A DNA stretch of 64,000 nt from Proteromonas lacertae (GCA_002245135.1 NGBS01000301.1:62001-126000); one strand, 5' to 3'. Positions 16,533 through 62,971 are shown, numbered from the stretch's first letter. The notes: a model not told the origin generated them from the sequence alone. A program made the numbers and translations.

Positions 16533-19415
16533 ATGACAGATAATACTCATAGAGTATATTTTTGCATTATAATAACTATATTTATAGAAGGGTCTATGGG
16601 ATGAAGCAGAAGATGATCTTTTAATCAAGAAAGTGGGAGAGTATGGATGTAACTGGGCTAAAATAGCAAATTTTATTTCAGGAAGATCGATGGATGAATT
16701 ATATGCGAGGTACATCACTCTTGAAACTTTTGCTCAAAGAATAATTCAGAACAAGAGGAAATTAAAGCGAAATCATTTCGAGAATGAATTAATTGTAAAA
16801 GCAGAACAACCTCCTCCATCTAAGCATCGTAGAACTGGTTCAATAACAGATATCAGTAGTTCTGTACAAATATCACCTGGGTATAGTCCACCTTATCCAA
16901 ACAAAATTTTGTATATATTTTATTACATATAAACATTACCCTAGTCAACATGTTTTAAGAAATGACACAAATCAACATATAATATCTGCTAGAGAACACC
17001 ACAGACTAAAAGAAAAACAAGAAATATTAGCATTAGTACAATCTTTGAAAAATAGTCCAATAACTGAACCTCCAGATACATTAGCAAAATCTAGAGTAAC
17101 TGTGGTAGATATAGACATAATAAATCCACCATTAACAGTAATAAAACGACAAGCTCATAGTTCAGATTCATCCTCTTCCTCTTCTTCAGATAGTGATTCA
17201 GAAAATGAAATGGAAAATGAACAGATTGTTATTCCAAAATTTCATGAAGTTCGATCAATTCAAGCTTTACCAAGAAAGTTTTGGATAGAATTTCAAAGTG
17301 GTTATTTAGGGTATATATATATATATTTATATATAATTATTTATTAAAATAGTCTAAAATATTTAGAGGAACGTAAATCCATCAATGAAAAGGTCATTAA
17401 ATTGGAAGAACAAAGAAGAAAATTAGATAAAATCAGAATACCCTATGTTTCACCACCTTCATCTACTACTTCCTATACACCAACTAAACTACCTCCATCC
17501 TTATTAAGTAACCATCATAAACAACAACAACAACAACAACAATCTCCATTAACATCATCATCTCAATCACTAATACCAGTGACAGGAAGAAAAAGAGCAT
17601 ATAGAAAGAAGAAAGATAATGATGAAGATGAAGATGCAATCATTGAGAATGTAAAGAAGGAGACAATTGCTATTAAATCATTAATTAATGAAAATGACCA
17701 ATTATATGGAAATGTATATATATATATATATATATAATATTATTTATTTATTTATTTAGATTATGTTTTCAACTTGTGTTTTCAATGCATTAGGTAAAAA
17801 TGATGAAGTTGTGAATATGATTAATGGAAAAGGATTGAGATATTTACTATCAAATTCAGAAAAGTATTTTAATTAATAATTATATATATATATAAATAGA
17901 AAAATATGTTGTTTATGTCGAACAGATGGTGATAATTTACAATTATGTTGTAAATGTAAAAGATATTATCATTCAACCTGTATATTATGTGAAGGAGAAG
18001 AGTATAATTATAAGAATAAGAACAATTGGAAGTGCTTTCTATGTGAACCACTTATCTTTAAGAATATTATATTTAGATTGAAAGAAATGATAAATCTCAA
18101 TAATATACTCAATATGAGTAAAGATACTATTATTCCTAATAATTATCATAGTGAAAGTAGTAATAATGAAAGTAGTGGTAGTGATAGTGACAGTATTAAC
18201 AATGCAAATAGTATAATTGATGATGAAATAGATGATGATGAAGATGAAGATGATGATGATGAAGATAATAAAATAATAACAATAAATAAACATAGAAAAC
18301 AACAACAACATAATAATAATAATAAACATCATAACCATCATCATATAAATCAATTTATAATTAATAATAGCAATAGAAATAAAGAAAACAGTATAGATGA
18401 TGATGATGATGATATGGATATTGATGTAGATTCCTATTATTTATGGACAGGATTAGAATATACGAAATGTAAAATACCAATAGACTATATAAGTGATGAA
18501 TTATTAATTAATTTCACTGACCAAAAGAATGAAAATATTAAAAGATTAAAACATAAATTCAATAGTTCAGTACATCGAATTGGATTGCAACAGTTTGTAA
18601 ACATGAGTAAAAGAGGAGAAGAATTAATGAATAATGTTATAAATGAAGGTGAATATTATCATTATGATTTTATTAAGAAAAATATTTTCTTTTCTACTAC
18701 ATTTCCTATTCCAGATGAATTATTGAAAATATATCCGTTATCTGTATATATTTTTTTATTTTTTATTTTGTATAGAGTAATGATTATTATATTCATTTTG
18801 GTGTGTTATTACAATCACTTTATAAGGATTTATACACTCTTATAAGAGATATATATCCAGAAATACTACTAGAATCAGTCAAGAATGAAGTATTAGTAAA
18901 AAAAGATGATAAAAAACTACCAGATGATGGATATGGTGGTGGTTCAAGGGCTTGGATCTTTCAAGCCAATCCTTCCTATTACGACATTGATGCATCATTA
19001 AAGAAATTAAAAGAAATGACTTGGTTTGTCAAGCAAAGTAGAAATTATATACATATAGGTGATATGGTATTTATATGGAAATCTGGTCCATATGGGGGAT
19101 TAGTAGCTATAGGAACAATAAAATCAGAACCAGCAATAATTAAAGAATGTAAAGCAATGAAACCATATTATCAAAGTCAAGAATTCTTTACTAAAATAGA
19201 TTATAGATGTTGGATTGATATTGATTGTGTATTACCCACTTGTATATCAAGAGATGTGTTTATTGGTAATGATGCTACAAGGGATATTACTATATTTAGA
19301 GCTCCTATTGCTACTAATTTTAAATTGACTGCTAGTCAGGCGAATGGTATATTGGATGTGACTAGAAGAGTGGTTGGTGATTTGGAGGATTTACCTTGTA
19401 ATATTGATACTTCTA

Positions 19416-19449
<34 letters not shown>

Positions 19450-20484
19450 TATATTTTTACATTTCTTATAACACATTTTCATTTATTTTTATTTCTCTCC
19501 TTTTTTTTAATCTTCTTTTTCATTTCATATTTTGTTAGAAAAAGTAACTCCTAAACCATCTATCAATCCTGATAATAATAAAGATACTAAAAAGCATAAT
19601 ATTACCTATATGTTAGACATTCAAGACTACTGTCATATATGTGGGAAAGACAATGATGATTCGCATATTATCCTTTGTGATAAATGTGATAGAGGATTTC
19701 ATATATACTGTTTAAACCCAAAACTTAATGATATACCAAATGGAGAATGGATTTGTCCAATCTGTAAATTGAAAAAGAAAAGAAGATACATCAGAGGAGT
19801 CAACTGTGAAATATGTGGTGAAGTATGTAATAGTAGTGAAGATATAAGTAAATCAAAATCTTGTATTATATGCCATAAACTTTATCATATTAATTGCTAT
19901 AAAGCAAATACTAATTTGAATTTACCTGAATGGAAATGCACTTTTTGTGAAGGATATCAGAAGAAGAAATATCATCTAGAAAAGGATGGTATATAAATAA
20001 ATATTTATATATATTATTTAGATGAATGGTGCCGAACATGTTTGTCAAAATCTCCAGAAAATGATTTATTTCGATGTTCTTGTTGTGAAATAGTGAGACA
20101 TAAGAGTTGTCCTGATCAATTCAATAATAAAGTAGGATATGAATCATTTCAAGGTATATATATATATATAATTTATCTAATTAATTAGATTATTCATTTT
20201 GTTACAGTTGTTATGATATTTATTTTAGAGATACGTTATGTAAACCATTTACAAGATTGCATATATTCCATCAAGAAGCTTGTTCATTAATACATTCACT
20301 GTTGAACCAATTAATTAAACAAATTATACAGAAATTGAATTCTGTCAATGAGACTGAATTGTATATGTTGTTATTTTATATTATTTATAGTGATGATGCT
20401 GTTTATTCTGAAAGTACAAGAATCAATCTGTTGTATAAACTGATTGCATATATCTTGACAAACTTTTTACTTTCCATAAAGTGA
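16533..20484 (+). CDS. Chromatin protein: Myb/SANT, PHD, EVE domain and further PHD fingers
   Basis: GLWDEAEDDLLIKKVGEYGCNWAKIA (Myb); PHD ~17900-18050; EVE-like 18950-19360; PHDs at 19620-19950 and ~20027-20210; exons joined by short introns. Confidence 0.75.
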
Positions 20485-34212: not shown

Positions 34213-37200
34213 CTAATGATCTTTCAACACCTCTCTTGTAATTCTCTTGGTGCTTCTATGAGATCTAACATTTCCAACAGTATCCATTATACGATCATTA
34301 GCTACATTACTATTTTCAATCACTAATTTTCCATCCAACTTTTCATCTCTTACTAATGGAACTGGAACTGACCAAGCTGATTTAATATTTGGTTTTCCAC
34401 TTATATAACTCTCAAATGCTTCAACCCATCTCTTTGCAATTTCATTTTCATTTTCATTTTCACCTCACAACTACACACTTTGAAGTGTAAATCTCGAATA
34501 TTCTCTCCTTTCTCATAATTCTTGATTGTTGATTCATTTACAGTGAATATTGCATTGAATTGATTAGTACCTTCAGTGTATTTCACTTCTTTTAAACACT
34601 CCATTTTGTAGGCTTGTTTTTCTCCTACATAAACATTACCGTAATAACTTGGAGTCATTGATTCGTATAATTTCATTTCATATGGGATTGTAGTACAATA
34701 CACAGTATCTTCTTTGATAACCATATTTTCCTTCTTTCATCAAATATCCTTCTAAAATAATTGCTTTTTCATAGGGATGGTAAATATCATCTTCATTTAC
34801 TTTTTGTTCTTCTTTCACTTTTTCTATTGGAATAACTTTCTCACAGATTTCTAATTGCTTTTTCTCCATTTTCGATACTTTGATTTTATCAACTACTCGA
34901 TAGGTAACTACACCAATTACAATTGCTAATACAACAACAACTAAAACAATTAGGAGTATTACATACCAATACTTTTCAGACCAAGATTCATTATCTTCTG
35001 TAGGTAGATTTGGATTAATATCATCAGCTAATTGTGTAATACCTAATTCAGTATCAGTACTAGGTGGTTTATCAGGATCTATGACTGTTCCACTTTTTTC
35101 TAATAATTCACTTACTTCTGGATTATCATTCTTGGCTATACTATCTATAGCTTCAGTTAATTCTCCAAAGAATGTTGAGAAATCTTGAATTTCTTGTAAT
35201 GATCTTTTATTATTATGAATAATTGTATTGTATTTCTTTGTATTTGTTTTCATTGTCAATTTAATTTCAGTTGATTGTGCTTCTCTAGTTATAAGTTGCT
35301 TTGTGATATCTGTATACCAATAATGACTATTATTGAATAACACTCTATCTAAAGTTTTAAGGAATTCAACTTTAAAATCAATACCGCTATTAGTATTTTC
35401 AATTGTTATAAATGTAAATGTTGTTGTTACATTTGTACATAATTCACCTTCTTCATGTTTACAACATACACCCATTTCGTCAGGATTCTGACATCCTATT
35501 AATTAAAGATAATAAAAATAATATATACCTTGTTTAATAAGAGGTAAATTTAATACATAATTCATATCATATTGATCTGATGTAATATTGATTTTCATTT
35601 GCTTTTCCATAGCAACAGCTGATTCAGCTTCATCAGTTGTTATATTAAGTTTGAATGTGAATATTTGACTACAGGATTCTGATACTGTCTGTTCATTTAC
35701 TAATACACTATCTTGTGTCACATTATAGCTATTATCATTACCATTATCAACACTCCATGTTAAAGTCATTTTTACATCCTCTAATTTTGGTATATTAAAC
35801 TCTTCATCTGTAATTACTGGACAAGCAACAGGAATCTTTATCTCAAATGGTTGATTTACATAAACCATTACAGGCTTACTTACTCTTGATACATCAATTG
35901 ATGGTTTATAATCTATATTTTCTTTCACACGTACAGTAAATGAAGTAGATCTGTTAGAATGTCTTGCACTATAGCAAGTAATTCTACATACACTCATTGT
36001 CAATGCAGTGTTTGGTATTATAAATAATCCACCATCTCCTTTCTGAATGTCATCATTACTACATCTTGTTATATATTGTATATCATCTCCTGTTTGAACT
36101 TTTGGTGATACTGTGTTTACTTTACCACTTTCTGCATTACTTACTTTAAAAACATAATCAGGTCTTTCATATGAACATTCTGTATAAGGAGGATTACATG
36201 AATCATAAACACGATTAGATTTTTCATATATAATATCAAATAACTCTGTCTGTTTTTCAATCAAGTAATTAATTCTATTTGCATCATCTACAACATCTGG
36301 ATCAACTTTATATGATATATTGAAAGACATTTCATCCTTTACTTTTTCTACTGTTAGATTATAAAATACTAATCCTTTTTCTATTAAATAATTGGGTATA
36401 TATTTAATAATTTCATTGATTACTGCGTTATCATCAGGTTCTTCTTGCGAAATTTCACTATTCACTGGATCACAGAATTTGAGTATATAATCAACTCTTT
36501 TAGGTAGTTTAGATGGATCAACAGTTGGAATAACTACTCCTCCTATTTCACTTACTATCTTATCAACAAAATAACTACTATAACTATCAAACAAGTTTCT
36601 ATATTTATTAATCAATTCTTCTCTATTACTAATATAATCTTTACCTATATCATCATTATCAATAAATTTTCTATAGATTGGATATCCTCTTGAAGTAAAG
36701 TATTTATTTTCATTATCTTTTGTTGTATAGAATTGTATAACATCTGAACTACCTACACTATTCCTCAATCCTATTGTAAAAGCTGTCATATTAAGTGAGA
36801 ATATTTGTCCATATAATATTTCAAAGAAAGTGTTATTAATTTTAATGTCATGAGCTTTTATATTGTAATCATCACTTTTAAATTCAGCTTCTTCATATAA
36901 AGATTTATCAGATGGTATTTCTTCTAGATTTACTGTTATAGTCTTTATTGCATTTTTTAATTTGCTTATATCTAATTCTTTTAAACTTACTTTGTTTAAA
37001 TTTAAACCAACAGATTTAACAGTCAATTGCTTATTTGAAACAGAGAATTTTATGGTTTTACATTCTTTTATTAATGTATCTAAAAACATTCTGCAACGAC
37101 CATCTTGTTTTTCAACGTTTCTATTTATACATATAATAAATATAAATACTCAAATGATATAATTAATGATTCACATCCATAATTATTCATCATTTGTTCA

Positions 37201-40200
37201 GTAACTTCAATTCTACTTTCTTGTTTGTCAATATTTGCATCTGTGAATGACAATTCAACTATTATAATAATATATATTAATATATTATACAATTCTCTTG
37301 ATTAGGTTTAGTTGTTACTAACTTTACTCCATATGAATATTCATCTCCATAACCATACATGTGATTATAATTTGTATGATTAACAAAAATGAATTGATTA
37401 GATGTAATGAAAAATCCAGAATAATAACCGTCTTCTTCTTTTTCATCTCCAACAATATCTAATGGACTTGCTTTTAAATGTTCATAATAATATCCAGTGT
37501 AAAGATTTTGGAGAATTCTTTCGTTATAATTAATTAATGGTAATTCTCTTTTCTTATTGTTACTATCATCATCTTTCTTACCTTCATTGTTCTTTACTTT
37601 TTTATCTAATATTGCCTTATATGAATTAATTATGGATTTAATTGATTGCTCAAGTTTGAGTGTAAAAGTCACATCTCCCTCAGTATCTATAGAATTTTAT
37701 AATATAATATAATATATACAAAAGTTTCCTTTCCAGTCACTATCTGTATACATGTTATAAACATCATCATTATATAGACGATAACCTCTATAAAATATAC
37801 GATCTTTCTTCTCAGAGAAATAAAAGAATTCTACTCTTGATCTATCATCTTCATCATAAAAATATGTTGAATTGTCACTTTCAGTCATATTTATTCCATT
37901 TGATTGTATTGATAATCCATTATCATTTACAAAACAAGAGTAATAAGAATTTGGTGTATAAATAGTCATCTCTTCATCAGAATCCATCACACTTCCTTTA
38001 ATTCTTTCCGCATCAACTGGATATGTCTTTGAATGGATATTCTCAATAAGATATTTCAATTCTGGTTCAGCTATTAATAATTATAAAAATATATCATATA
38101 TACAGTGAGTCACATAATAATAATTACTTGATGATGAACAAGATGTACTTCTGTATTGAAAATATATATCTCCATAAAAATATATTGGCTTTCCATATTC
38201 GATTATGTATTTATCTAGAGTTGGTTTGATACATTCTTTATTTTTCAATTCAGAGTATTTATATTCTTTTTTTGCTTCGACACAATCTTTTGCTATTTTA
38301 CTCTCTTTTATTTCATTATCACTAAAATAGAATATTGTTTTTTCTTCATCTAAAACAACATTATTAAATGTAATTATAGAACCACTTCCATATAATTCAT
38401 ACTTATATACTATTTTTGCCATTCTTTCGTCATTACTTTTCTTGTATAATAAACAACACTCACTACTTGTTGCTAATACCAAATAGTCACTTTTGCATGT
38501 TTGATTAAATGAATTGACTATTTGAATGTTTTGGTCTCTAATTCCCTTACGAACTGTAGAATATAAATCATTCATTTTGGAAGTATCATAAAACTTAAGA
38601 GCATCTCTAGCATTGTTTTCAGTCGAATATTTGTGCATTTTTTCGTTCTTATAATTTTCAACATATTTTCTGGTAGGGAAATAATAATCACTTCTATCAT
38701 AAGTATAAAAAACATCTGATGCAGAACCAGGATATGTGTAAAAGAATTTTGATTGACTAGCACATCTTGATGTGAATGACAATTCTTTTTCAGAATAATC
38801 ATCACATTTTATTTCATATGAATTTACATTACATATTTCGCATACTTTATTTCCAACTTTATATATAACTGATGGTATTGATAATGATTTATCTTCTGGA
38901 ATAGGTACTATATTCAACGTTATTTTAGGTATTACATCAGTAAATAAACTAACATCTAACCTGTTTCTACTCATATAAAAATCATATGAATTAGAGAAAT
39001 CGCTTCTACTTAATGTAATTATTTCATTTCCCCATTCTAATTTATATTCCAGCTTTGTAACATTTTTATTAATCATATTTATAACCTCATTATAAGCTTT
39101 AGAGCATTTTGTTTTTAAATCTCTATTGAAATATATATTTTATAATTACATACTTGATTGATATGAATGATCTTGAACAATTGTAATCTCTACTTTGTTT
39201 CAATGACAATTCTACTCCACTTAATTCTTGGTTGATTGTATTAGTGTTTATAGTAATAACTTCTATAGATATTATATAAGTAATTAATCATATACTCTTT
39301 TTGTCGTAGTTATCTATTATATATTTCATTTGATATAATGTATCTATGTCATATTCTTCTCTTCGTTCTTGAATAATAAATATCAGTTGTTTCTCATTAG
39401 TAAATATAGCACCATACAGAATATTTATATTATTCCAGGAATTCAATTGCTCATAGTAATACTCTTTGGTATTATCTAAATTTCTTGATTGGGTATTATC
39501 AGATAAACTTACTTCCTTCAATTCATTAGCTGAGGTTTGATTTAAAAAATCTGTTAGTTTGTTACTGATATTCTTCTTATATGCATCTTCAAATAAATTC
39601 AATATATCTTCTTTTCTAACAGCAGTTCTAACCTTTGAATAATAGCATCCATTAAAGCAATAACCTTGGTCTTCTATATAAACATCATCATCAGGATTTA
39701 GTTTTATATAAACTTTAGATGATGGTATAATTTCTGTTCTATTTTCATACATAATAAAGATAGTATTGTCATATTTGAATTGAAAAGAATACCCACTAAA
39801 ATTACTTACATGCAAAGATGCATAAAAATATGGAGTGAATACTTCAACATCTTCTGATGATGATTGAAAATCATATAAAAGGGAAGAATCAACAGGATAT
39901 GTTTTATAGTGATAGTTGTTAAGAATGTACTTTAAATCATCTGATGAACCTAATACAAAATAAATATAAACAATAATACTTATTGTTCCTGGAATATTAT
40001 ATGAAGAAGAGTATATCCATCCTCCTTCATATTTCTCTGGTAATTCTATATTCTTAATGATAGTATCCACATCTTTCTTTACTATATCACATAAACCTTT
40101 TATCTCTTTGTAGGTATATTCATTTTTCATCAAATTACATCCTGTGTTTTGATTGAAGTCATTAATTCTTTTATCACTAAAATAGAACCAAGATTTATCT

Positions 40201-40729
40201 TCGTTTAAAGTAAAGTTTTTGAAATATAAATAACCTTGATCAAAAACATAATCATATTGATATTCTATTTTGAAAAATCTATCTTCCCATATCTTTTCAA
40301 CTATTGCAAAACTGTCATTCAATAAATAATAAGCCATGTTTTGATAATCTCTTTTATAAAAATATCCTTTTGATTTAAATATTTCATCAAATGAGTCTGA
40401 TGAACCACCGCTAGTTGGATCAATCGTTGGATCAGGTAATAATGATGGAGTTGGTCTAGATGCAATAATATCATCACATATTTCAATTATCTGATTATAC
40501 ATAATATCTCTTTCATTTTTGAATAATTGATATACATTTTCATCACCTATTGATAATAATAAGAGTAAAAGATATCTATATACTAGTTTTTTCGTATGTA
40601 ACACCTTCCAAATATTTTGTACTAACTAATGGAAGCTTAGCATTTTCATAAATAGTAATGTTATTACCAGTTTTTGGTATTCCATAGTAATACTTATTAT
40701 TACATTTTACATAAGATTGAGTAGCTAAT

Positions 40730-40760
<31 letters not shown>

Positions 40761-42585
40761 CATTCTGTAGGTTTCATAACAGTATGCTTAATACTAAGTC
40801 CATTCTTATTTGTAAAAATATATAAACCTTTATAATGATATATGTCGGACAAACTATTATCAACAGCATAAACAAATGCATCATTAATTCTAATTGTATT
40901 CTTTGTCACAGTATTGGTTATAAAACTAACAAAATCTATTGAATCAGAAATTGTTTTGTTTTTAAACAAAACATTTGTCTTTTCTCCTTTTGTATTTTGT
41001 ACAGAAACACTCTTATCATCAGCAAATGTGAAAATATAACCAACATATTCTCCAACTAACGATTCTACGTAATCAACTGCTTTGTTGCATGAAGTTGAAA
41101 CATTTCTAAAGAAATATAACAATAATAATAACAATACGCTAAGGAAATAAACTCTGTTGAACAACTAAACTCTGTTGCTTTATCTTTTGGTAATTCAATA
41201 CCACTATTTTTATTATCAATTAATTCTCTTGTAAGAGTAAATGCTATTCATTATATTATAATTATATATCTATACGTTTGGTCTTTTCTGTAACAGCAAT
41301 TACTAATTGTAATTTAAACAGATTCTCTTGTGTTTGATCTATCGCATTACTCTGTATTATCATTATAAATGTTTCTCCTAAATTGAAATATCCTTTATAG
41401 ACATTTAATTCATTCGTTTCAGCATATAGAAACTTTGTATCTACAGTTTCTGTTATAATTCTTTTTGGAACATTCTTTACTGGTGATGATAAAAGCGAAG
41501 AAGCCAGTGCATCATATTTTTCATCAAATAAAGTTGTAATCTTTCTATAAACATTATCATATTTCTGTTTAAAATCATCAATATTACTATAATATTTTAT
41601 ATAATCAGCACCTTTAAATAATTCAGCCCAATAATTTTCTCCTAATATAAATATCATATCACCAGATTCTTCCAATGCTATCGCAGTTACACCTATACTA
41701 CTGTAATTCTCATGAGGTTCAAAACTCATTGAGGAAGTACTTTGCTTTAACGTATAATCACTTTCTCTATAGCTTATATCTGAACTGTACATGTTGCCAT
41801 TGTAGACTACATCTATATGGCTCCTCTCAGAATCACTAAAGTGTTGTATACCCATTTTATCAACATCATCTACAGGAAAAGTCTTTGCTTGCATTTTGTT
41901 AATTATATATCTAGCAGTACCATCTTTTATATCATCTTCTTCATCTATATAACTATATAAAATACTAGTTCATACAGATATCATAAGTTTGTACTACTAC
42001 GTCAGCAAAATTAATATATAAGTCAGTTGCATATTCTTTCACTTCAACCGTTATTTTTTGAGGTAAAGGCAGCTCTTTTTCATATGATTTAGCTAATGTT
42101 TGAATTTTTTGGCAGGAAGTGCTGGCCTCTTGAAAACTTATTTTCTCCTGGATTGTAGAACACCCACTTACACTATTATAAGAATTTACTTCTGTTGAAT
42201 TGAGGTATATAAAAGAATTTGATTTATCAAGTGTAGGATTCTCTATCAAATACTCATCTCCTGTTACATTGAGAGTATATTTGTAGACTAGTTTATATCC
42301 ATTTACTTCTTTGAAATATCGTTTAGTCAAAACACCAAATGTGTCATTTGTGAAGACATAACCAGCATTAAGAGACTCAGCATATCCGGTAAGAGCTAAT
42401 TTTTTAGCATCCTTGGTTTGCATCGCTCTGTTAACTTTTCGAACATTGGATCTGACAGTTGATCTACTTAATCTTTCACCTAATGGGCTAACAGCATTTG
42501 CATTGTGAAGACAAATGATGATGAGCAAGAAACCTATGAACAATAGACGCTATCATATCATACAAAAGAAATTCTTGACTGGCAT
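34213..42585 (-). CDS. Very large type I membrane protein: repeated ectodomain, TM helix, cytoplasmic PH domain
   Basis: Signal peptide after a 30-nt intron; three KT(Y/F)PVD-marked repeats; TM WYVILLIVLVVVVLAIVIGVV; PH motif LEGYLMKEG..YQRRYCVL; frameshifts at 34684-86 and 34463-64. Confidence 0.7.
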
Positions 42586-50372: not shown

Positions 50373-50726
50373 CTAGAAGCTGAGAAAAATGGGATTATAA
50401 AAAATTGTGTTTCAATTTTATAAGAGTAAATGACACAGTGAATATAAATCTCAGTAATATATGTTATAACGTAAATAGTTATGTCATTAGATGAGTTTTA
50501 TAAGGCTATTTAGAAAGTGAAATTACGGATATCACCTAAGTTCCATATATTTCTTCATTTCTATTTTAATTATTAGTATTTATTAATGGACCTCCAATTT
50601 ATATGCACAAATTGTGTCTATAACATGGTGAAAATCATAAGTAAAGATTTGACCGTTTTAAAAAGTTTCTACTATTTGTAATAACTGTTAGTTTATTTTT
50701 AAAGTTGATTTTATCATTATATTACG

Positions 50727-53663
50727 ATGAAAATCATATATTTGTTATTAATTATATCTATTATATTCATACATGTAAAAGCTGAGAATAATAGAATTAT
50801 TGACGAAGAAGAAGTGGTTATAAATAGTAGAAGAGTATTAGCAGATGAAGCTATTAAATATTCAATTAAAATTTGTGGAACAAGACCTGAAAAGCCAACA
50901 GAAACAACAACAACTCCAGAAGCTACAACAACAACAATAGCTACTACCAAACCAGAAGTGACCACCACAGACGATGAAATTTTAATTAGTTCTTCTGCTG
51001 CAACAACAAGAACTGATGATGAACAAGAAACACCAACAGAAGATGAAAAAGAGAATAAACAGAGAATATTAGCTGAAAGAAAAGATTTTGATATGACAGA
51101 TAAAACCGAATTGGGAAATATAATAAAATCAATATTAACCGAATTATATCCCGAAGGTGTTACAGTAAAACAAGTAGATATTCCAACAATAGAAGAACCT
51201 TATAGTTTAACAATTAATATCACTTTAGTAAATAGTAATGATGATAATAAAGTAAAGATTGAAGATTTAAATTTGAATATTAGTTCAAATAATAATGATG
51301 ATTTTTACAACAAATTAAACGAAGCTACTAATAATATATATAGTAAATGTAGACTAGAAGAAACAACAACATGTAAATATGACAAACAAAGTTATAAATT
51401 TATAACAAAAAATGTTGGAAGTAGAAAAATAACACCAACATTCGGATCAAAATTAATAGAAGGTAGTTGTACAAATACAATAACTTCAATGGATCCTGAT
51501 ACTGGAAAAATCAGTGTTATTTTATCCAAAGAATTTTCATCTTACTGTAAAATACAATGTAGAGATTATTTAAAGAATGATGGTTATGGAGTTGTAAGTA
51601 TAAAAGTAATTAGTGAAGATAAAGTAGAAAAAGGACCAGTGTTTGATAAAATTAGTTATCCAGTAATGGTATATGTAAATGAACCATTTAATACAACTTT
51701 AACATTGAAATATCCTGATATTATTGATGATAGTGAAGAGGAAGAAGAAGAAGAAAAAGTAAATAAAAACAATAATAAAAATGAAAATGAAAATGAAGAA
51801 TTAACAATAGAAATGGTTATAAATGATAATGATAACAGTAACTTTACTATGAATGAACAAGAATCAACAGGTATTGAAGAATTCAAATTTAATAATGCCA
51901 ATATTACAATTAAAGAGAATACTGAAATTACAATAGAAAAAGAAATTGAGTTAGCATATAGAAATGTTAGTAATGAGCATATATTTCATAATGTTATTGT
52001 AAAGGTATTATCTCAGCCTTGTCCAAATCCAGATGACATGGGAGTTTGTTGTGTTCATAAACCTGGAGAATTATGTAGTAATTTAACATTGAGTTTTTCA
52101 TTTGTTAGTTTTACTACTTCAAGATTATTAGCTGCTGTTGCTGTTGCTGATAGTAGTAGTGATGTTGAATTTAGAAATGAATTTAAAGAAGCATTAGATG
52201 TTAATGTATTTACACCACAAGATTGTGTTGCTACTGATAAAAGTGAAGGAACAACATTAAATGATCCATTAATATTATCAGTGAAGAAGAATGCGCCAAG
52301 TGAAAGTGGTGATGGTGATAATGATTCTGGAAATAAACCAACAAAAATCATAACATTAGAAGAAGCATTTAAAGGTATAATAACATCCATAGAAAAAATA
52401 CAAAATAATGAAATACCTGAAGTAGCAAAAGTATTAACAGAAAATAATATTATATTAGATCCTGATCAACCAATCACCTACAGTCAAGTTATATCCAATA
52501 CAGAATTACCCACATTTGAACCAAATCCAGTTAAAACTGGTGGAGAAAATAACAATTGGGCTAAAGATAATTGGTATGTCATATTAATCATTGTTATAGT
52601 GATATTGTTATTGATTGTTGGTGGCGTATTTGGTAGTTTGTTTATTATAAAGAAGAGAAAAAATAATAATAATAATTCTTTACCAACTAATTTCAATAGT
52701 GTTGTTGATGGTAATATTGATAATAATAATAATAATGACAAGAAAAAGAGTAAAAATAAGAATAAATACCAAGTCAATGATAAACAAGTGAATGAAAAAC
52801 ATCAATCAATTGAAGATATTGAACCTGAAGGTGATAATGTTGTAGGTAAAGTATCAATTGATATAAATAACAACAGTTATAACAATAATTATGTAGATGA
52901 AGATGATGAAAATACTAATTCAAATAAACCAATCAAACTTGAAGGTTATTTAGAGAAAGAATTGCCAGAAAGAACTACAGATAAATGGATATTAAGATAT
53001 TGTGTATTATATGCAAATCCATCAATATTATATGTATATGAAAGCATGAAGCCAAGTTATAAAGGTAATATCTTTACTGGTGTAAAACAAATCATTCCAT
53101 TAGATTCAGTTAAAACAATTAAATATGATAAAAAACAAAGTAAACAATTATACGATTTTACTATAATTATGTTGGATAATGATCAACAAGTACAATCGAA
53201 TGAATGTATGGAGGATTTGAAGTATGTTCATTTGAAAATACCAGCTGCTGATTATCCTACAACTGTTAATTCATTTAATGAATGGATTAATTACTTGACT
53301 GCTGATGAGAAACCTAGTTTGATTAAAGATGCGTGGGGTGGTGATTATGTTTCTGATAATGGAGAAGATGAGGAACAACAACAACAACAACAACAAGTTG
53401 ATGATAGTGGAGATGTGAAGATTGATTTTAATGATGATGATGATGATGGTAATAATAGGCAGGAAAATGAGGAAGAAGATCATCAACAACAAGAACACAG
53501 ACTACAGACACCTCCACAACCACCTCCACGTCAATTACCTCCTTCACCATCATCACCTCCTACACCACCTCCAAGAGCATTGAATGAGTCTCCTGATAAA
53601 GTATCTTTACCTGTTGGAAGAGTAAAGGCACATCGTGATATTGGCTTAAGGGATGAACCATAA
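50727..53663 (+). CDS. Type I membrane protein with cytoplasmic PH domain; intronless paralog of 34213-42585
   Basis: 978-aa ORF with signal peptide, TM WYVILIIVIVILLLIVGGVFG, PH motif KLEGYLEK...WILRYCVL, and Pro-rich tail. Confidence 0.85.
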   Translation: MKIIYLLLIISIIFIHVKAENNRIIDEEEVVINSRRVLADEAIKYSIKICGTRPEKPTETTTTPEATTTTIATTKPEVTTTDDEILISSSAATTRTDDEQETPTEDEKENKQRILAERKDFDMTDKTELGNIIKSILTELYPEGVTVKQVDIPTIEEPYSLTINITLVNSNDDNKVKIEDLNLNISSNNNDDFYNKLNEATNNIYSKCRLEETTTCKYDKQSYKFITKNVGSRKITPTFGSKLIEGSCTNTITSMDPDTGKISVILSKEFSSYCKIQCRDYLKNDGYGVVSIKVISEDKVEKGPVFDKISYPVMVYVNEPFNTTLTLKYPDIIDDSEEEEEEEKVNKNNNKNENENEELTIEMVINDNDNSNFTMNEQESTGIEEFKFNNANITIKENTEITIEKEIELAYRNVSNEHIFHNVIVKVLSQPCPNPDDMGVCCVHKPGELCSNLTLSFSFVSFTTSRLLAAVAVADSSSDVEFRNEFKEALDVNVFTPQDCVATDKSEGTTLNDPLILSVKKNAPSESGDGDNDSGNKPTKIITLEEAFKGIITSIEKIQNNEIPEVAKVLTENNIILDPDQPITYSQVISNTELPTFEPNPVKTGGENNNWAKDNWYVILIIVIVILLLIVGGVFGSLFIIKKRKNNNNNSLPTNFNSVVDGNIDNNNNNDKKKSKNKNKYQVNDKQVNEKHQSIEDIEPEGDNVVGKVSIDINNNSYNNNYVDEDDENTNSNKPIKLEGYLEKELPERTTDKWILRYCVLYANPSILYVYESMKPSYKGNIFTGVKQIIPLDSVKTIKYDKKQSKQLYDFTIIMLDNDQQVQSNECMEDLKYVHLKIPAADYPTTVNSFNEWINYLTADEKPSLIKDAWGGDYVSDNGEDEEQQQQQQQVDDSGDVKIDFNDDDDDGNNRQENEEEDHQQQEHRLQTPPQPPPRQLPPSPSSPPTPPPRALNESPDKVSLPVGRVKAHRDIGLRDEP

Positions 53664-55567: not shown

Positions 55568-57221
55568 ATGAGATATTTGAGTATAATTATATCTAAAAAT
55601 ATTATTAAAAGACATAATTGTGATTATTTTATTGATTGGATTGGCTTTCGCAAGAGTAATCCCAGAGAAACGTAAATTTGTGTCAAATGTTGTTGATAAA
55701 GCTGTAGCTGATTTAAAAAGCAAAATTAAAGATGCTAAACTAGCTGAAATATTTGAAAATGCTTACCCAAATACACTTGATACAACAATCTATAGTTTTA
55801 AAGTATTTGTGAAATTTTATTATATTATTCAATAGTATTCAAACAGAAGTATCACTGGTAAAACAGATACCTTTGTTGTAACAGGCGATATACATGCAAT
55901 GTGGTTAAGAGACAGTTGTAATCAAGTTCTTCCTTATTTTCGTTTTGTAAATGAAGATTCAGAGCTAAAAGAGATGTTAAAAGGTGTTTTAAACAGACAA
56001 GTATTGATAATTCAATAATTTCATTTTAGATTTACAGTGTGAAGTTAGATCCATATGCCAATGCATTTAATTATGATTCAACAGGTCATCCAGATTCTCA
56101 TAAATCAGATTCTACCTCAAAACCCGATTATTTAGATTCAAGAACAAATGCAATGATAAACGAAATATTCGAAAGAAAATACGAAATAGATTCATTAGCA
56201 GCAATGTTAAAACTATCATATGCGTATTATAAAAACACAAAGGATCTATCTCCCTTTGATTCTGATTGGATAATTGCAGTAAATAATATAATTGAAGTGA
56301 TTAAAGATATGCAACAAGAAACAATACCAGGAGTAAAATTCAATTATTTCTTCCAAAGAGAATCAACACAACCAACAGAATCATTACAAAATGGATTTGG
56401 TTTTCCAGGTAAAAAGACCAATTTAGTATTATAATTAATTATTATTATTATTTGTTTATTTATAGAGTAGAAGTAGTTTTAGACCATCAGATGATGCTTG
56501 CACATTTCCATACTTTATTCCTGGTAATGCAATGATGGTAGTTGAATTAAGACATGCTTCTGAAATATTATTAAAAATTAAAGTATAAAAATGATAATAT
56601 TTATTATCTATAATAGAGAGATGATATTAGTAATGTTGTACTACAACTAGCCAATGATATTGAAGCAGCTATCTATCAATATGGAATAAGAAAAGACTCA
56701 GATTTTGGTGAGATATTAACCTATGAAGTAAATGGCTATGGAAGTGATTATTTTATGGATGATGCAAATATTCCTTCATTACTCAGTTTACCTTATATTG
56801 GATTTATTGATTATAATAATACATTGTACAAAAGAACTAGACAAGCTGTTTTATCCAATAAGAATCCATATTTCTTTAAGAATGATAATGTTGAAGGAAC
56901 TGGTGGTCCTCATAATGGATTGGGATGGATATGGCCTATGTCTATTATTATACGTATTATGACTACTGATGTATTGATATTATTATTATTATTGTAATAT
57001 TAGGATGAAGCTGAAATAATGAAGTGTTTAGAAATGTTAAAAGTTTCTGCAGTTAATAATTATATTCATGAAAGTTTTTGGTTTGTATATTTATATATTA
57101 TTATTATTATTAGACTAATCCAGGAAGTATTACGAGACCATGGTTTGCATGGGCAAATAGTTTATTTGGTGAAATGATTTTTGATTTAGCTGAAAAACAT
57201 CCCAATTTGATATTAAAATGA
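55568..57221 (+). CDS. Glycoside hydrolase family 125 (exo-alpha-1,6-mannosidase-like), secreted
   Basis: FENAYPNTLDTT, VTGDIHAMWLRDS, DPYANAF, ERKYEIDSL, FRPSDDAC, MDDANIPSLLSLPY and TRPWFAWANSLF motifs; signal peptide. Confidence 0.92.
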
Positions 57222-57334
57222 GTATTTAATACATAATACTCTAGTAATTAACAATAATTATATATATATTGTTTTTTTATTTAGTTATATACTCTAACAA
57301 ACAAAATGTGAATAGATATAATAAAATAAATCAG

Positions 57335-57680
57335 TTACTGCTTATTTTGTTCAGCATTGCGATATCTTTGAGCAGTTTCATAATGCAATCCGTGGAATCC
57401 AAAATCTGGTTGATGAACAAAGTCATAATACTGTTTCACCAAGTCTTTACACATTTCATGATGGTTAACACCTAAATTGAAATATAATAACCACAATACC
57501 TTCCTTAAGAAAACATTCAGATATACGCTCTTGCATTATTTTAGCTTTCTCAATTTGTACGAATTTTTCTCTTGTTCTCATGCCAACTGCATCGAAATAC
57601 TGCATTGGGTCAGATTTATCAATGTGACCATCAGGTAGAACCTTAAAATCTTCAACGTAGTCAAAATGGACGTCTGACAT
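57335..57680 (-). CDS. NDUFB10: Complex I subunit NDUFB10 (PDSW)-like
   Basis: REKFVQIEKAKIMQERISECFLKEGVNHHEMCKDLVKQY after removing one short intron. Confidence 0.85.
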
Positions 57681-57962
57681 AGCAATCTATAAAATAAAAT
57701 ATATAATAATCATTATAATAACAATTGTGATTTTTTAAAATCACAGTAGAGCATATAAAAATGAAAAAGAAACATACAAAACTTGATAATGACAAACCAA
57801 GAATCAAGCTTTTTATTTTCTTTATTATCTTCGTATTTATGAACATTAAGATAGCATAATCATATAGTACATATTACTAGCTTAATTATATGTAATTCAA
57901 TTCATTTTCAATCAAAAATATGGAATATTGGAAATAAAATACAAACTTATTAAATATTAAAC

Positions 57963-58972
57963 TTAAAAATAATAAGATGCAAAAGTCAAATAACTGGTAT
58001 GACCTTTAGTCTTTGGCTCAGGCTGACATAAATAGGGTTTAGCTTTCCAATAACTTTTTCCAATCACTGGCTCATTAGGCGATTTTAGAGGAGACTGAAG
58101 TGATTTTGTTGTAGTTAAACTTCCTGTAGTTACTTTAAATGGTTTTGTCAATACTTCAACAGTATGAGTCACTATAATGAGTTAATAGATTAAGTATACG
58201 AGTGAATCCAAGTGAATTTATTGTTTTTACATTATTCTGTACTTGTTCAATACAAGGCGAAAAAGTACAAATCTTACCTCCATTCTTCAATACCTTCTTT
58301 GCATGCTCTATTGCTATCCATGGTCTAGGCAAATCAAGAAAAACCGCATCCACTTGTAACCCATCAGGAAAACCGTTACTACAAACATCTCTGTGTTCTA
58401 CTATTATTCTGTCGGAAAGACCATTTTTATTAAACTCTTCTCTACAAAAATTATATCAAATAAAATATACTTTGCTGCATTGGCTCTCATTTCATTGAAT
58501 TCGAATGTAAACACCTTACCAAGCGTTCCTACACAATCAGCAAAATGTGTAGTCAATGAGCCTGTTCCAGTACCTAATAATAATAAACATAAATCTATAC
58601 CAGCTTCACAAATAGTCTTGCCTTGCGATAATTCAAGTTCTAAACAGATATAACTTGCATCCATATTATAAATAATTTGTGTTCTGTGAGGCAGAGACAT
58701 AGTCCATAGCTCTGGAGATGGTTTTAACATGTATAACCAACCAGATCTACTCTTTTCTGTACTTCTGGATTTTATCTTTTAAAATTTATATAAAAATGTA
58801 TGCTAATACTATAGAACCATATTCTTTCCCTATCATATCATCGTGGTGAAAATGACCATATCTATTGTTATATATTTCACCTTTTGTAATATAGATTGGA
58901 TTTATTGAGTCATGATTTTCATAAAGCAATACTAAGTCACCTTCTTCTATAAGTCTAGTGATTAGAATTCAT
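57963..58972 (-). CDS. TRM61: tRNA m1A58 methyltransferase catalytic subunit
   Basis: PELWTMSLPHRTQIIY, EAGTGTGSL, DAVFLDLPRPW, FSPCIEQV and GHTSYLTFA motifs; start uncertain because of an apparent 1-nt insertion near 58962. Confidence 0.92.
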
Positions 58973-59013
58973 AAAAATTATATTTCTCAAGCCAAGTTTA
59001 TTTATTTTTAAAA

Positions 59014-59772
59014 ATGAAAGAAGAAAAGTTATCTGATGATCCATTGATTGAAAAAGGTGATGTGACCAATTTGTTAAGACTAGAAGAAGGTAACAGAGAG
59101 AATTTTGAACCCACAGTAAACACATTTTTTGGTGTACCATATAAAACAGGTAATTAAAATTCATATAATATCTATAGGTGGATATCTTGGTGGATATAAA
59201 CTATTTAAAGGATCATTAAATATGAGAACTTTACCTAGATTGGTGTTGATAGGTCCAGATTGGCAAATGGGTATTGTATTAGCATTAGTATTTGGTTTTT
59301 ATAACCTAGCTGCACTTGTATTAGCGTATTTTATATGTTATTTATTTATCGTCATTAGAATCATTGCTTTTGGTGTATATGGATTATTTCCACTTTTGCC
59401 ACTATCAATAGCAGTTTATACATATTTATTAGTATATACAAGTGAACCTGGAATAATACCAAAGAATCTAACAGAGACTCAAATTAGAGATAAATTTCCA
59501 GATGCTACTGCCTTCTATGTATGTCATACATGTAATATAATTGTACCAAGAAACGCTTATCATTGTCCTACATGTAGGGTATGTGTAGCTGATGTATATA
59601 TTATTGATTATTATTTATTTAGATGGATCATCACTGTCCATGGGTTGGTAAATGTGTTGGTAAGAAAAATATGATATTCTTTTGGTCGTTTTTAATTGGA
59701 AGTATGTTTGATTTGATGTTAACAACAGTAACAGTATGTGCAAGTTTAGTTAAAATCGTATCTCATTTTTAA
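59014..59772 (+). CDS. DHHC palmitoyltransferase
   Basis: [29 protein letters not shown] and spliced [15 protein letters not shown] motifs. Confidence 0.9.
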
Positions 59773-59860: not shown

Positions 59861-62800
59861 TTAGAAGTCATAATCAACAATTAATGAATCATCACTATAA
59901 ATACAATAATAAATATATTATTAATATACAATGTAGATGCTCTGCTTCGTGTATATATTGTATATCTACTCTTAGTAGATGTAAACATTGCCAAACAGAA
60001 ATTCAAAAACTTTGCTGCCTTTGGTGAAAATGTCATTTTATTTACTTCTACATCTGGTTGTTCACCATAAGTTATCTAATAAATATACAATAATATATAT
60101 AATATTATACATTAGTTAATTTGATAGTATCAATAATTGTTGATCCCAATATAAACAAGGATATTAAAATAACCCAAACGGTAGTTCTAATACAATATAA
60201 CATATAATTTATATATATACAAAGTAATCATTTCTACATTATGAGTTGGGAATATAATAGATAATGAATAAGCAATAGCTCCTCTCAATCCACTATGAAT
60301 CATTACAACTTGGTAATTACTAGGAACTCGAGGATTTTTCTGTCTAAAATTCAAGAAATATGATAAAATAATGATCATAAAAAACCTTACAACTAATAGA
60401 ACAGCAAAAACATATAAAATCCAAAGTATTGGTATATTACTAGTATCAAAGGTCAATGCAATATTTTGTCCAATTTGGAAAAATATTAACATTTCACACA
60501 TATGTGCAACAATATGAGTACTGTCTTTAGAGAAATTAACTGAAGCGTCATCCATTGATTTTGTAGCAAAATATTGCATAGACAAACCACAAAACACTGA
60601 CGATGTAATACCACTTAAAGTTAAACTTTCACAAACGCAGTAAGACATATACGAACATAAGAATACAACCAATGCGTCTAAAACAGGAGCATGAAATTTG
60701 CAAACTTTCAAAACAAAAGATGCAAAAATTCCACAAATAATACCAATTAGAGTTGATCCAACAATCATAATCATAAAAAAACAAATACTCCAAACTACAG
60801 CACCAGTTGTAATAACTTTAGATATGAATTGGCTGCATGTTTTGAATAAAACAATTGCTACAGCATCATTCAATACACTTTCACCATAAACATAAGTATT
60901 AAGTAATGGTTCAACTCTAAGTGATGAAAATAAGGCTAAAACTGAGACAGGATCTGTAGCTGAGACAATTGAACCATAAGTAATACATTCAATATTTGAC
61001 CATCTAAAGTCAAACCAATTGTAGTTAAAACCTAAAATTAAAAATCCTCCAACAGCAAATGCAGTAAAAACAGAACCAATAGCAGCAAATACGAAGATTG
61101 TACCAAAATACCTTAAGAATAATGCTTTAGCAGTCATATTATAACCAGATTCAAATATAATAATAGGTAAAAGTACCAACGAAAAGAATTCTTTATCAAA
61201 TAGAGCATTTTCTATTAATTCCTCAGTGAAACCTAATCTGAATATAACACCAGCAATTATTCCAATCACAACAGTAGATGAAGTCTCAGGGAAATGCATA
61301 ATATTATATTTCTCAATAAATGTACCACAAACTATACAAATAACTAAAAACATTAATTCTATAAAGTAAAACCTATTTCCATTAAATATATAAACATATA
61401 ATATTAAATAAATATACATTGCTTCTGTTGATGCTTCTCCTACTGGTTCATCATCTGGAATATCAGTTGTACCATCACTAAAATAGGGATTTATATCTAA
61501 TTTAAATGTCTTGTTGGATGTAAATGAACCAATATTGATTAATTGATCATTCTATATATATAATATAATGTTATATATATATATATATATGATAATTATA
61601 CATGATAATTTTGATAAATATATCTCCAATCTATTCTATCATATTTCTTATCAACTCGAATATGTCCTGTTTGTCCTTCAAATGAGACTTGTCTACTGTA
61701 TTGCAATAATTCAGAACGATTTTTACTAAATAAGTATAACTAAATATTTATACTAAATATCAATATTTTTATCAAGCATAATAGTCAATGTTTCACCAAT
61801 AAAGTAAATACTATCATATGCATATGCAGCAGACATAACAATATCATTTTCTTCAAATGATAACTCATGTCTACATTTATCTTCAATCTTCTTCACTACA
61901 TCTTCATGATTCTTCTTAAATTCTCTAAATTTCTTTGCTAATTTGCTCATATCTCCAGGATCAGGTAATACACCAACTGCACCATTCATTGCATTCTTTA
62001 CAGTATCTCTATATTCAGTTGGTAATAAATAATAAGTTTCTGAACTTAGCCAATCTGTGGAAATCCATACCCATCCTTTACCTATCATATGAAGCTTGGA
62101 GGCTCGATATAATACAGCACTAGCTTGTACAAAGTAAGTATATAATACAATGACTCTAAAACCACGGGATTTGATGTTTTCTAAGGCTTTATCTATTGCT
62201 AATTCATCCATCTCTGAGAGTGGTAATTTGATATTGTAATTGACACTTTGCTTTAATACAGTCTATTGATAAAAATTATATATATATAAAGATACAAATT
62301 CTTCATATAGTCCTTCTTCTTCTAGTGCTGAAGCAATATCATCTCTCCCTGATAAGCCATAAATATCATTCTGATAAATCAATCCAATATTATTCCAATC
62401 ATAATTCTTCAATAATGCTACTAATGCTTCAGATCTGTATTTATCAGATGGATTTACTCTACCAAAGTGTGGGTAAGCTGTTGTATCTGATAATGAAGAG
62501 GAGGTTGATGAATAATCAATTTGATTAATATCATCTACTGAACATCTTACTTGAATAACTCGACTGAGTTCACTTGTACCAGGTCCAAAAACTCCAGAAA
62601 TGCTAGATGATGATAGAAGTGATGTTAAAGTGGTCAAACAATTATATCTATAAATTTTGATTGACATATTGCATACTCATCATTCTTACAATCTCCAATT
62701 ATTAGATTGAATGTATTATTCCCCATTATATCCTCATTGTGGTTGATTTCTTCAACTGCAATCTAAACAAACGTTACAACATGATTTTATTAATACTTCA

Positions 62801-62971
62801 GATGCAATGAAATTATAACTACCTTCTGTACACCATGTATTAGTTGCATTGGTAATTGATTCAAGATTAAACAAACCGACTAGAAAATAATAAACATGTG
62901 AATTTACTCAGATTGATAGCTTCTTCTGACAAACAACTGACAATAAATACAAATAGGATAACCAAAAACAT
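59861..62971 (-). CDS. Fusion of an ANF-receptor/Venus-flytrap ligand-binding domain to a CPA1 Na+/H+ exchanger
   Basis: Signal peptide; VFT motifs (IAVEEIN, VFGPGTS, SSTSSSLSDTTAYPHFGRVNPSD, YDWNNIGLIY, GWVWI, AAYAYDS); continuous frame through FSDGTTDIPDD into NHE motifs (LLPIIIFESGY, SATDPVSV, GESVLNDAV, SGLRGAIA). Confidence 0.85.

Follow-up and report, generated by a model that had tools for sequence, protein, structure and literature searches.

Results

Gene content of the window and the gene at 62971-59861

The window analysed here is a 64,000-nt stretch of Proteromonas lacertae DNA that has the features of a compact eukaryotic genome, with a G+C content of 23-33%. The Blastocystis motif TGTTTGTT was found at 12 sites compared to 8 expected. 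In the region 17880-19996 (+), the sequence at 18776-19468 encodes an EVE domain (PF01878, E 2e-8), which is directly followed by a PHD-finger exon at 19511-19993 (+; PF00628, E 2e-16) and preceded by a PHD-like Cys-rich ORF without a Pfam match; this region is probably one PHD-EVE-PHD gene, the product of which may couple the reading of modified nucleic acid to chromatin reading. Large surface-protein-like ORFs, which are apparently related and have a single membrane segment, are present at 34678-42549 (-) and 50709-53663 (+), and no clear family was detected for the latter in the Pfam scan.

On the minus strand, from 62971 to 59861, 11 exons joined by their coordinates give a predicted chain of 919 aa, i.e. 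a single frame of 919 codons between an ATG at 62971 and a stop codon ending at 59861. The order along the predicted chain is signal peptide, Venus-flytrap (VFT) domain, Na+/H+ exchanger (NHE) and short tail. The ten introns are all GT-AG, have lengths of 28-50 nt and contain 76-92% A+T, and the splicing model is based on splice signals and homology. The neighbouring genes within 55587-59772 are ordinary, i.e. a GH125 mannosidase (+), a TRM61/GCD14 tRNA methyltransferase (-) and a DHHC palmitoyltransferase (+), the last of which converges on the VFT-NHE gene with less than 100 nt between the predicted stop codons.

Exon 1 (62908-62971) contains the start codon and the predicted signal peptide (aa 1-21; hydropathy peak at aa 1-25); likewise, 27 of 31 N-terminally complete relatives begin with a hydrophobic stretch. 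VFT lobe I starts in exon 2 (62797-62879), which carries Cys38. Exon 3 (62677-62762) encodes VFT aa 50-77 and lies inside the family-profile match described below. Exon 4 (62296-62647) encodes the ligand cleft with S103, T126, D146 and Y174, exon 5 (61754-62262) encodes lobe II with D265 and Cys325, and exon 6 (61602-61725) encodes the C-terminal VFT strands. A Cys is present at position 38 in 24/41 relatives and at position 325 in 32/41, and the two residues probably form a disulfide. Exon 7 (61418-61551) encodes the VFT end with the family motif (W/F)xxG...PxD and a short linker in the NHE frame. Past a 45-nt, in-frame GT-AG intron at 61373-61417, the bulk of the NHE membrane domain is encoded by exon 8 (60221-61372), the final membrane helix by exon 9 (60111-60186) and aa 861-908 of the cytosolic tail by exon 10 (59930-60075). 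Exon 11 (59861-59894) is the predicted last exon with the stop codon and is placed by splice signals, with no homology support; because homology backs the model only up to aa 892, exon 11 and the intron before it are tentative predictions.

In Pfam scans, ANF_receptor (PF01094) matched exons 4, 5 and 6 in order, at profile positions 46-148 (E 5e-23), 150-294 (E 1e-15) and 312-345 (E 1e-4), the first two of these pieces scoring above the curated cut-off and the third below it. Na_H_Exchanger (PF00999) matched the ORF at 60187-61551 with E 3e-50 and 171.6 bits compared to a cut-off of 26.2. A first-pass annotation of this DNA had described a signal peptide and a full VFT domain, and a segment, NDQLINIGSF...ASTEA, reading without a stop into an NHE domain; the hydropathy peak, the PF01094 pieces, which together span profile positions 46-345, and the ORF at 60187-61551 agree with this description. 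The same annotation had described the cytosolic tail as short. This is correct for the P. lacertae protein, the tail of which has about 60-70 aa and no Pfam match; however, tails of 77-347 aa in most complete relatives indicate that a short tail is not a trait of the family.

The VFT domain and the exchanger are predicted to form one chain

A profile built from 46 relatives, with the P. lacertae protein excluded, matched aa 26-892 of the predicted chain as a single stretch with 673 bits. In the spliced model, the PxD motif at the VFT end and the motif following TM1 are 43 residues apart, and this spacing is 43 (31 proteins), 44 (7 proteins) or 45 residues (3 proteins) in 41/41 relatives; with the 45-nt intron retained, it would be 58. 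Similarly, a junction profile matched the spliced sequence as one ungapped piece with 45.1 bits and the intron-retaining sequence as two pieces with 10.7 and 23.4 bits. The matching spacing and the unbroken junction profile support the intron at 61373-61417, which the first-pass annotation had also called, and show that the spacing is constrained.

Among 80 metagenome loci retained out of 524 NHE-like matches, a VFT domain is located upstream of the NHE at eight and in the same stop-free frame at six, so that the fusion is independent of intron calls. Moreover, the fused relatives P0001 and P0174 are transcript-type records annotated as complete ORFs. These data bear on whether a secreted VFT gene and a stand-alone NHE gene were wrongly joined by the gene model. 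In favour of two genes, the VFT would run into a stop if the intron at 61552-61601 were retained, and exon 7 has an in-frame ATG at its end. However, exon 7 shares its frame with the NHE and encodes a conserved VFT end, its score against the family VFT-end profile being reached by 1/1000 shuffles; the junction spacing agrees with that in 41/41 relatives; and the fusion is found in a single stop-free frame at the six loci as well as in the complete-ORF transcript records. We therefore rejected the two-gene reading, which we consider extremely improbable. In total, we conclude from these comparisons that the fusion of VFT and NHE, which the first-pass annotation had claimed for this one protein, is real and part of a conserved family.

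VFT-NHE proteins form a family of protist proteins

When proteins with lengths of 796-2270 aa were searched with the exchanger ORF, PF01094 and PF00999 occurred together in 25 of the best 120 of 125 long NHE relatives, and 24 of the 25 ranked in the top 30. PF00999 was detected in 27/27 and PF01094 in 26/27 aligned relatives. A HMMER search of 1.84 billion representatives with the alignment of these 27 relatives as query added more members. By our own profiles, both domains are present in 78 of the 301 collected proteins plus model, a count that includes near-duplicates and the model itself; at less than 90% identity in the exchanger domain, at least 41 distinct fused members remain, including the P. 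lacertae model. A word-indexed search returned seven proteins with the family alignment as query and only P0174 itself with the P0174 VFT as query. The fused relatives are mostly metagenome proteins; named hosts are Cafeteria, with four entries of 1254 aa, Platysulcus tardus, and Picozoa, the latter from single-cell proteomes.

In one subgroup (P0004, P0005, P0012, P0015, P0019, P0024, P0027 and others), an insertion of 60-290 aa, possibly a cytosolic regulatory loop, is present in the middle of the exchanger after model position ~675; it is absent from the P. lacertae protein. Other NHE fusions were also among the matches (P0040, P0047, P0056, P0077 and P0074): four carry a GDSL-lipase-like domain (PF13472/PF00657), and one from Chrysochromulina carries a vWA domain.

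Public databases already contain the family sequences, with automatically assigned names that are often "NHE8". As far as we found, the architecture has gone unremarked: in line with the first-pass annotation, no description of it was found in the open full-text literature. The family of receptor-exchangers is thus apparently undescribed.

Fused members group in one exchanger clade

A FastTree phylogeny was calculated from 229 exchanger domains, i.e. the 277 of 297 with at least 75% coverage after thinning at 90%. In this tree, 41/41 fused members fall in one clade of 59 with a support of 0.98. The remaining 18 members of the clade are fragments that begin within the domain or at the end of the VFT, or apparently VFT-less proteins. 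There are ~11 of the latter; two of them have a signal-like start directly before TM1, and some may be truncated gene calls. In an IQ-TREE fast tree of 59 hand-picked sequences of the 229, 27 in-clade leaves grouped with an SH-aLRT of 94, while P0174 joined at only 36, and the P. lacertae protein was placed differently in the two trees. The fused group and its sister, which includes a Diacronema protein, were joined with a support of 95. Named NHE8, NHE6/7/9 and fungal NHX proteins branch elsewhere inside a broader shared clade (SH-aLRT 98). The named NHE8 proteins (P0197 and P0216) form a clade of their own (SH-aLRT 99.9) apart from the fused family, and on this ground we rejected the label of NHE8 orthologue.

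Pairwise identities in the VFT and in the NHE are correlated (rho 0.68; the pairs are not independent). Moreover, 12/23 well-supported splits of the NHE tree recur in the VFT tree and 13/18 VFT splits recur in the NHE tree, while the two trees are strongly discordant for one member, P0036. The simplest reading of these trees, although not proven, is that the fusion originated once and that the VFT was later lost in some lineages. Two positions in predicted outer NHE loops, A507 and N754, which were picked post hoc from 12 columns, are frequent in fused members (83% and 78%) and rare in the 11 VFT-less in-clade relatives (0% and 9%), eight of which are one subclade; these columns are only a lead for a docking surface. 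In the sister group, the NHEs P0234, P0236 and P0280 have a different N-terminal extension of 140-310 aa upstream of TM1, suggesting that this NHE branch may have acquired more than one extracytosolic domain.

The ion site of the exchanger is conserved

The best solved match of the P. lacertae exchanger is NHE9 (E 3e-41). NHE9 T214, D215, E239, N243, D244, R408 and R441 correspond to T590, D591, E615, N619, D620, R780 and R814, all of which are encoded by exon 8, and the transport motifs ATDPV, ESVLND and GLRGA are intact, as the first-pass annotation had reported. The account of NHE9 in PMC7737618 describes D215 and D244 as binding the ion, E239 and R408 as a pair, and R441 as capping a broken helix; moreover, Asn-Asp (N243 in NHE9) rather than Asp-Asp is described there as the mark of electroneutral exchangers. 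The equivalents of D215, E239 and D244 are present in 27/27 relatives and those of N243, R408 and R441 in 26/27, with two misses coming from one truncated protein. This conservation suggests that the exchanger is likely active in electroneutral Na+(K+)/H+ exchange. In line with an NhaA-type fold of 13 TMs, AlphaFold models of two relatives gave target TM-scores of 0.77-0.88 in Foldseek comparisons with NHE9 and NHE1. With ~11 in-clade relatives apparently VFT-less, the exchanger is probably able to work without a VFT.

Binding-protein fusions to transporters and transporter-like receptors are known, and the fused protein could be a receptor or a re-purposed transporter, in which the VFT delivers substrate or the membrane domain relays to cytosolic partners. 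The long and variable tails of the relatives would be in line with such a role. However, the near-invariant cation/proton site in the 27 relatives is as expected for continued Na+(K+)/H+ exchange and not for amino-acid transport or a dead relay, and we regard this reading as improbable.

The NHE structure described in PMC7737618 has 13 TMs, an extracellular N terminus and a TM1-TM8 dimer interface. The P. lacertae protein aligns with NHE1 from TM1 onwards, and a signal peptide and VFT ahead of TM1 fit this topology, supporting that the VFT is extracytosolic. By analogy to the known NHE structure, the VFT would be attached to the scaffold on its outer or luminal side.

The VFT domain of the P. 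lacertae protein has an amino-acid signature

Exon 4 aligned without gaps to mGlu1 (E 2e-16), for which PMC2680970 names S165, T188, D208, Y236 and D318 as main amino-acid-binding residues. In this alignment, S103, T126, D146 and Y174 correspond to mGlu1 S165, T188, D208 and Y236 (numbered with the +32 offset of the 1ewk chain, by which all four residues land on the right letters), and the SSTS motif, rightly described earlier as retained, aligns with mGlu1 SATS. The matches of exon 5 to GLR3.4 and GABA-B1 were weak (E 0.011-0.015); in a weak match to GLR3.4 (E 0.011), D265 aligns with the D of IATDW. We assume that D265 occupies the position of mGlu1 D318 and is likely the fifth signature residue. 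No alignment with the P. lacertae VFT was obtained for the region of mGlu1 K409, which concerns selectivity for the glutamate side chain.

In 41 relatives, all five positions are present in a compatible form in 12, four in 3, three in 10 and two or fewer in 16. The 12 relatives with all five positions come from several branches, and this scatter suggests an ancestral amino-acid site that would have decayed or been retuned several times. The first-pass annotation had proposed an amino acid as a possible ligand. This proposal fits the P. lacertae member, in which the signature is apparently intact and the ligand would probably be an L-amino acid; the degenerate signature of most relatives speaks against it as a rule for the whole family.

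A family VFT profile (9 rows) had its best match in the amino-terminal domain of GLR3.4 over the full length (E 2e-39); class C receptors followed, i.e. T1R3 (6e-27), GABA-B2 (9e-27) and mGlu1 (7e-25). GLR-type amino-terminal domains act mainly in assembly and allosteric modulation. The most conserved VFT columns lie in the core and at the junction (R141, R231, G258/W259, P438 and D440) and not in the cleft. Together with the degenerate cleft in 29/41 relatives, these observations would also fit a VFT that is a ligand-free structural cap for assembly (dimer or oligomer), trafficking or shielding from luminal proteases, for which iGluR amino-terminal domains and the ligand-less VFT of GABA-B2 are models. 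By contrast, the P. lacertae protein apparently retains the five signature positions despite a mean VFT identity of ~25% within the family, and NHE dimers are described as forming by TM1-TM8 without such a cap (PMC7737618). We consider a purely structural role unlikely, though with a substantial minority chance.

Alternatively, the VFT could regulate the exchanger as a sensor of ions or pH (Ca2+, Zn2+, H+) or of a binding partner, either a protein or a peptide, instead of an amino acid. Known VFT ligands are stated in PMC2680970 to include peptides, sugars, cations and amino acids, calcium-sensing and GABA-B receptors are among the top Foldseek matches, and varied ligands would fit the degenerate clefts of many relatives; against this, the alpha-amino-acid signature is apparently complete in the P. 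lacertae member. In our estimate, this alternative has a small chance of being correct.

Models of relatives suggest a fairly defined placement of the VFT domain

Full-length AlphaFold models of the relatives P0014 (pLDDT 81, pTM 0.72) and P0001 (pLDDT 85, pTM 0.81) suggest that the placement of the VFT on the membrane domain is fairly defined. In both models, 6-8 residues ahead of TM1 have a pLDDT below 50, which does not support coupling by a rigid pull on the linker; contact between surfaces would be the more likely route, provided that the two domains are coupled. Foldseek searches with relatives matched the exchanger half to NHE9 (rank 1), NHE1 and NHE3 and the VFT half to GABA-B, mGlu and CaSR, and no solved structure spanning both domains was among the Foldseek matches listed or the 60 listed for the profile search. 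The prediction of a VFT homodimer for P0014 scored 0.27, with the mark at 0.32, and was counted neither for nor against binding.

Discussion

We propose that VFT-NHE proteins are one-chain receptor-exchangers, in which the VFT binds a small extracytosolic ligand and thereby tunes a likely electroneutral Na+(K+)/H+ exchange. Because the amino-acid signature is kept by only 12/41 relatives and the GLR amino-terminal domain is the best match of the VFT, control by a ligand, which the first-pass annotation had also suggested, is something that we infer, and we judge the chances of this proposal to be about even. In the proposed mechanism, the exchanger dimer would place two VFTs above the TM1 dimer interface. 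The ligand would shut the VFT clamshell, closure would shift the scaffold or the outward-facing funnel, and the elevator core would then cycle faster or slower, altering the rate or set-point of exchange. The output would be a change in pH or Na+ with no intervening G protein or kinase.

Counted in favour of coupling are the spacing of 43-45 residues in 41/41 relatives, the pTM values of 0.72 and 0.81, the correlated identities and the shared splits. Precedents for separate parts of the mechanism have been reported: SLC9C1 is presented in PMC10620091 as an NHE gated by fused sensor domains and a "mechanistic chimera", a VFT fused to a kinase responds to L-arginine according to PMC2680970, and a luminal loop of NHE9 above the dimer interface alters Na+ affinity on lipid binding (PMC11953442). 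The VFT-NHE family does not have this long loop, leaving that space free. Counted against gating are the 29/41 relatives in which one or more of the five amino-acid positions are missing and the attachment of the VFT to the scaffold rather than to the moving core; moreover, the in-clade relatives apparently without a VFT speak against gating as a rule for the family.

As for the location, the grouping of the exchanger with organellar-type NHEs favours an endosome or a food vacuole, in which amino acids from digestion would adjust a proton leak. The named hosts (Cafeteria, Picozoa and Platysulcus) are phagotrophic, which points in the same direction. We hold this site to be a tentative suggestion that is more doubtful than the proposal of ligand control itself; the alternative location is the cell surface.

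Known regulation of NHEs acts from the cytosol, through lipids or, in the case of SLC9C1, through voltage and cAMP, and known effectors of VFTs are GPCRs, channels, cyclases and kinases. With an exchanger as the effector, pH or Na+ flux would be a new kind of receptor output, and the family would be a model for the control of an elevator transporter by an outside domain through the scaffold. Heterotrophic protists, which are abundant in the sea, would thereby have a route for sensing nutrients. In the widest form of the proposal, to which we give somewhat less than even chances, VFT-NHE proteins would be the first known family of secondary transporters gated by an extracellular or luminal ligand, with one early protist origin and ligands retuned by lineage, and would allow phagotrophs to pass on an amino-acid level as a change in pH or Na+, with neither G proteins nor channels involved. 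The family includes intron-free members, among which P0001, P0014 and P0017 have an intact signature, intact as well as degenerate clefts, and apparent VFT-less relatives that can serve as controls. Even if the VFT were merely structural, this is a conserved family that is currently mislabelled as NHE8 or NhaP in databases.

The organellar-type NHEs of the CPA1 group (SLC9A6-9, NHE8 and fungal and plant NHX) have the membrane domain, the ion-site residues and the Asn-Asp motif in common with the VFT-NHE family, which differs by the 420-aa VFT ahead of TM1. Moreover, it is without the long TM2-TM3 hairpin loop of NHE6/7/9 and forms a clade of its own, apart from named NHE8 and NHE6/7/9 proteins. 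Sperm sNHE (SLC9C1) and SOS1 are likewise NHEs with an activity set by fused sensor domains. However, they sense through a voltage sensor and/or a cyclic-nucleotide-binding domain located at the membrane or in the cytosol, while the putative sensor of VFT-NHE proteins is N-terminal and extracytosolic; moreover, SLC9C1 and SOS1 are distant in sequence (E 1e-22) and on a separate branch, and the C-terminal voltage-sensor or cyclic-nucleotide-binding domain of SLC9C and SOS1 is absent from the P. lacertae protein.

On the receptor side, class C GPCRs (mGlu1, GABA-B, CaSR and T1R) are alike in having a signal peptide followed by a VFT, a short stalk and a dimeric membrane domain, and the P. lacertae VFT apparently has their amino-acid signature. 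The effector of VFT-NHE proteins is instead an ion exchanger: no 7TM domain (7tm_3) was detected by Pfam in the pieces of the window or in the 27 relatives, and no cysteine-rich domain in the 27 relatives. Among the amino-terminal domains of plant GLRs and NMDA receptors, that of GLR3.4 is the best full-length profile match for the VFT of the family and extends over the WPG-type segment at its end; by contrast with iGluRs and GLRs, an S1/S2 ligand-binding domain and a channel pore are absent, and the VFT runs straight into NHE TM1. Finally, in Venus kinase receptors (VKR), single-pass tyrosine kinases of invertebrates and not transporters, a VFT with a partly kept amino-acid signature is likewise joined to an unrelated effector, and PMC2680970 reports their activation by L-arginine. 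VKR are therefore the closest conceptual precedent for VFT-NHE proteins.
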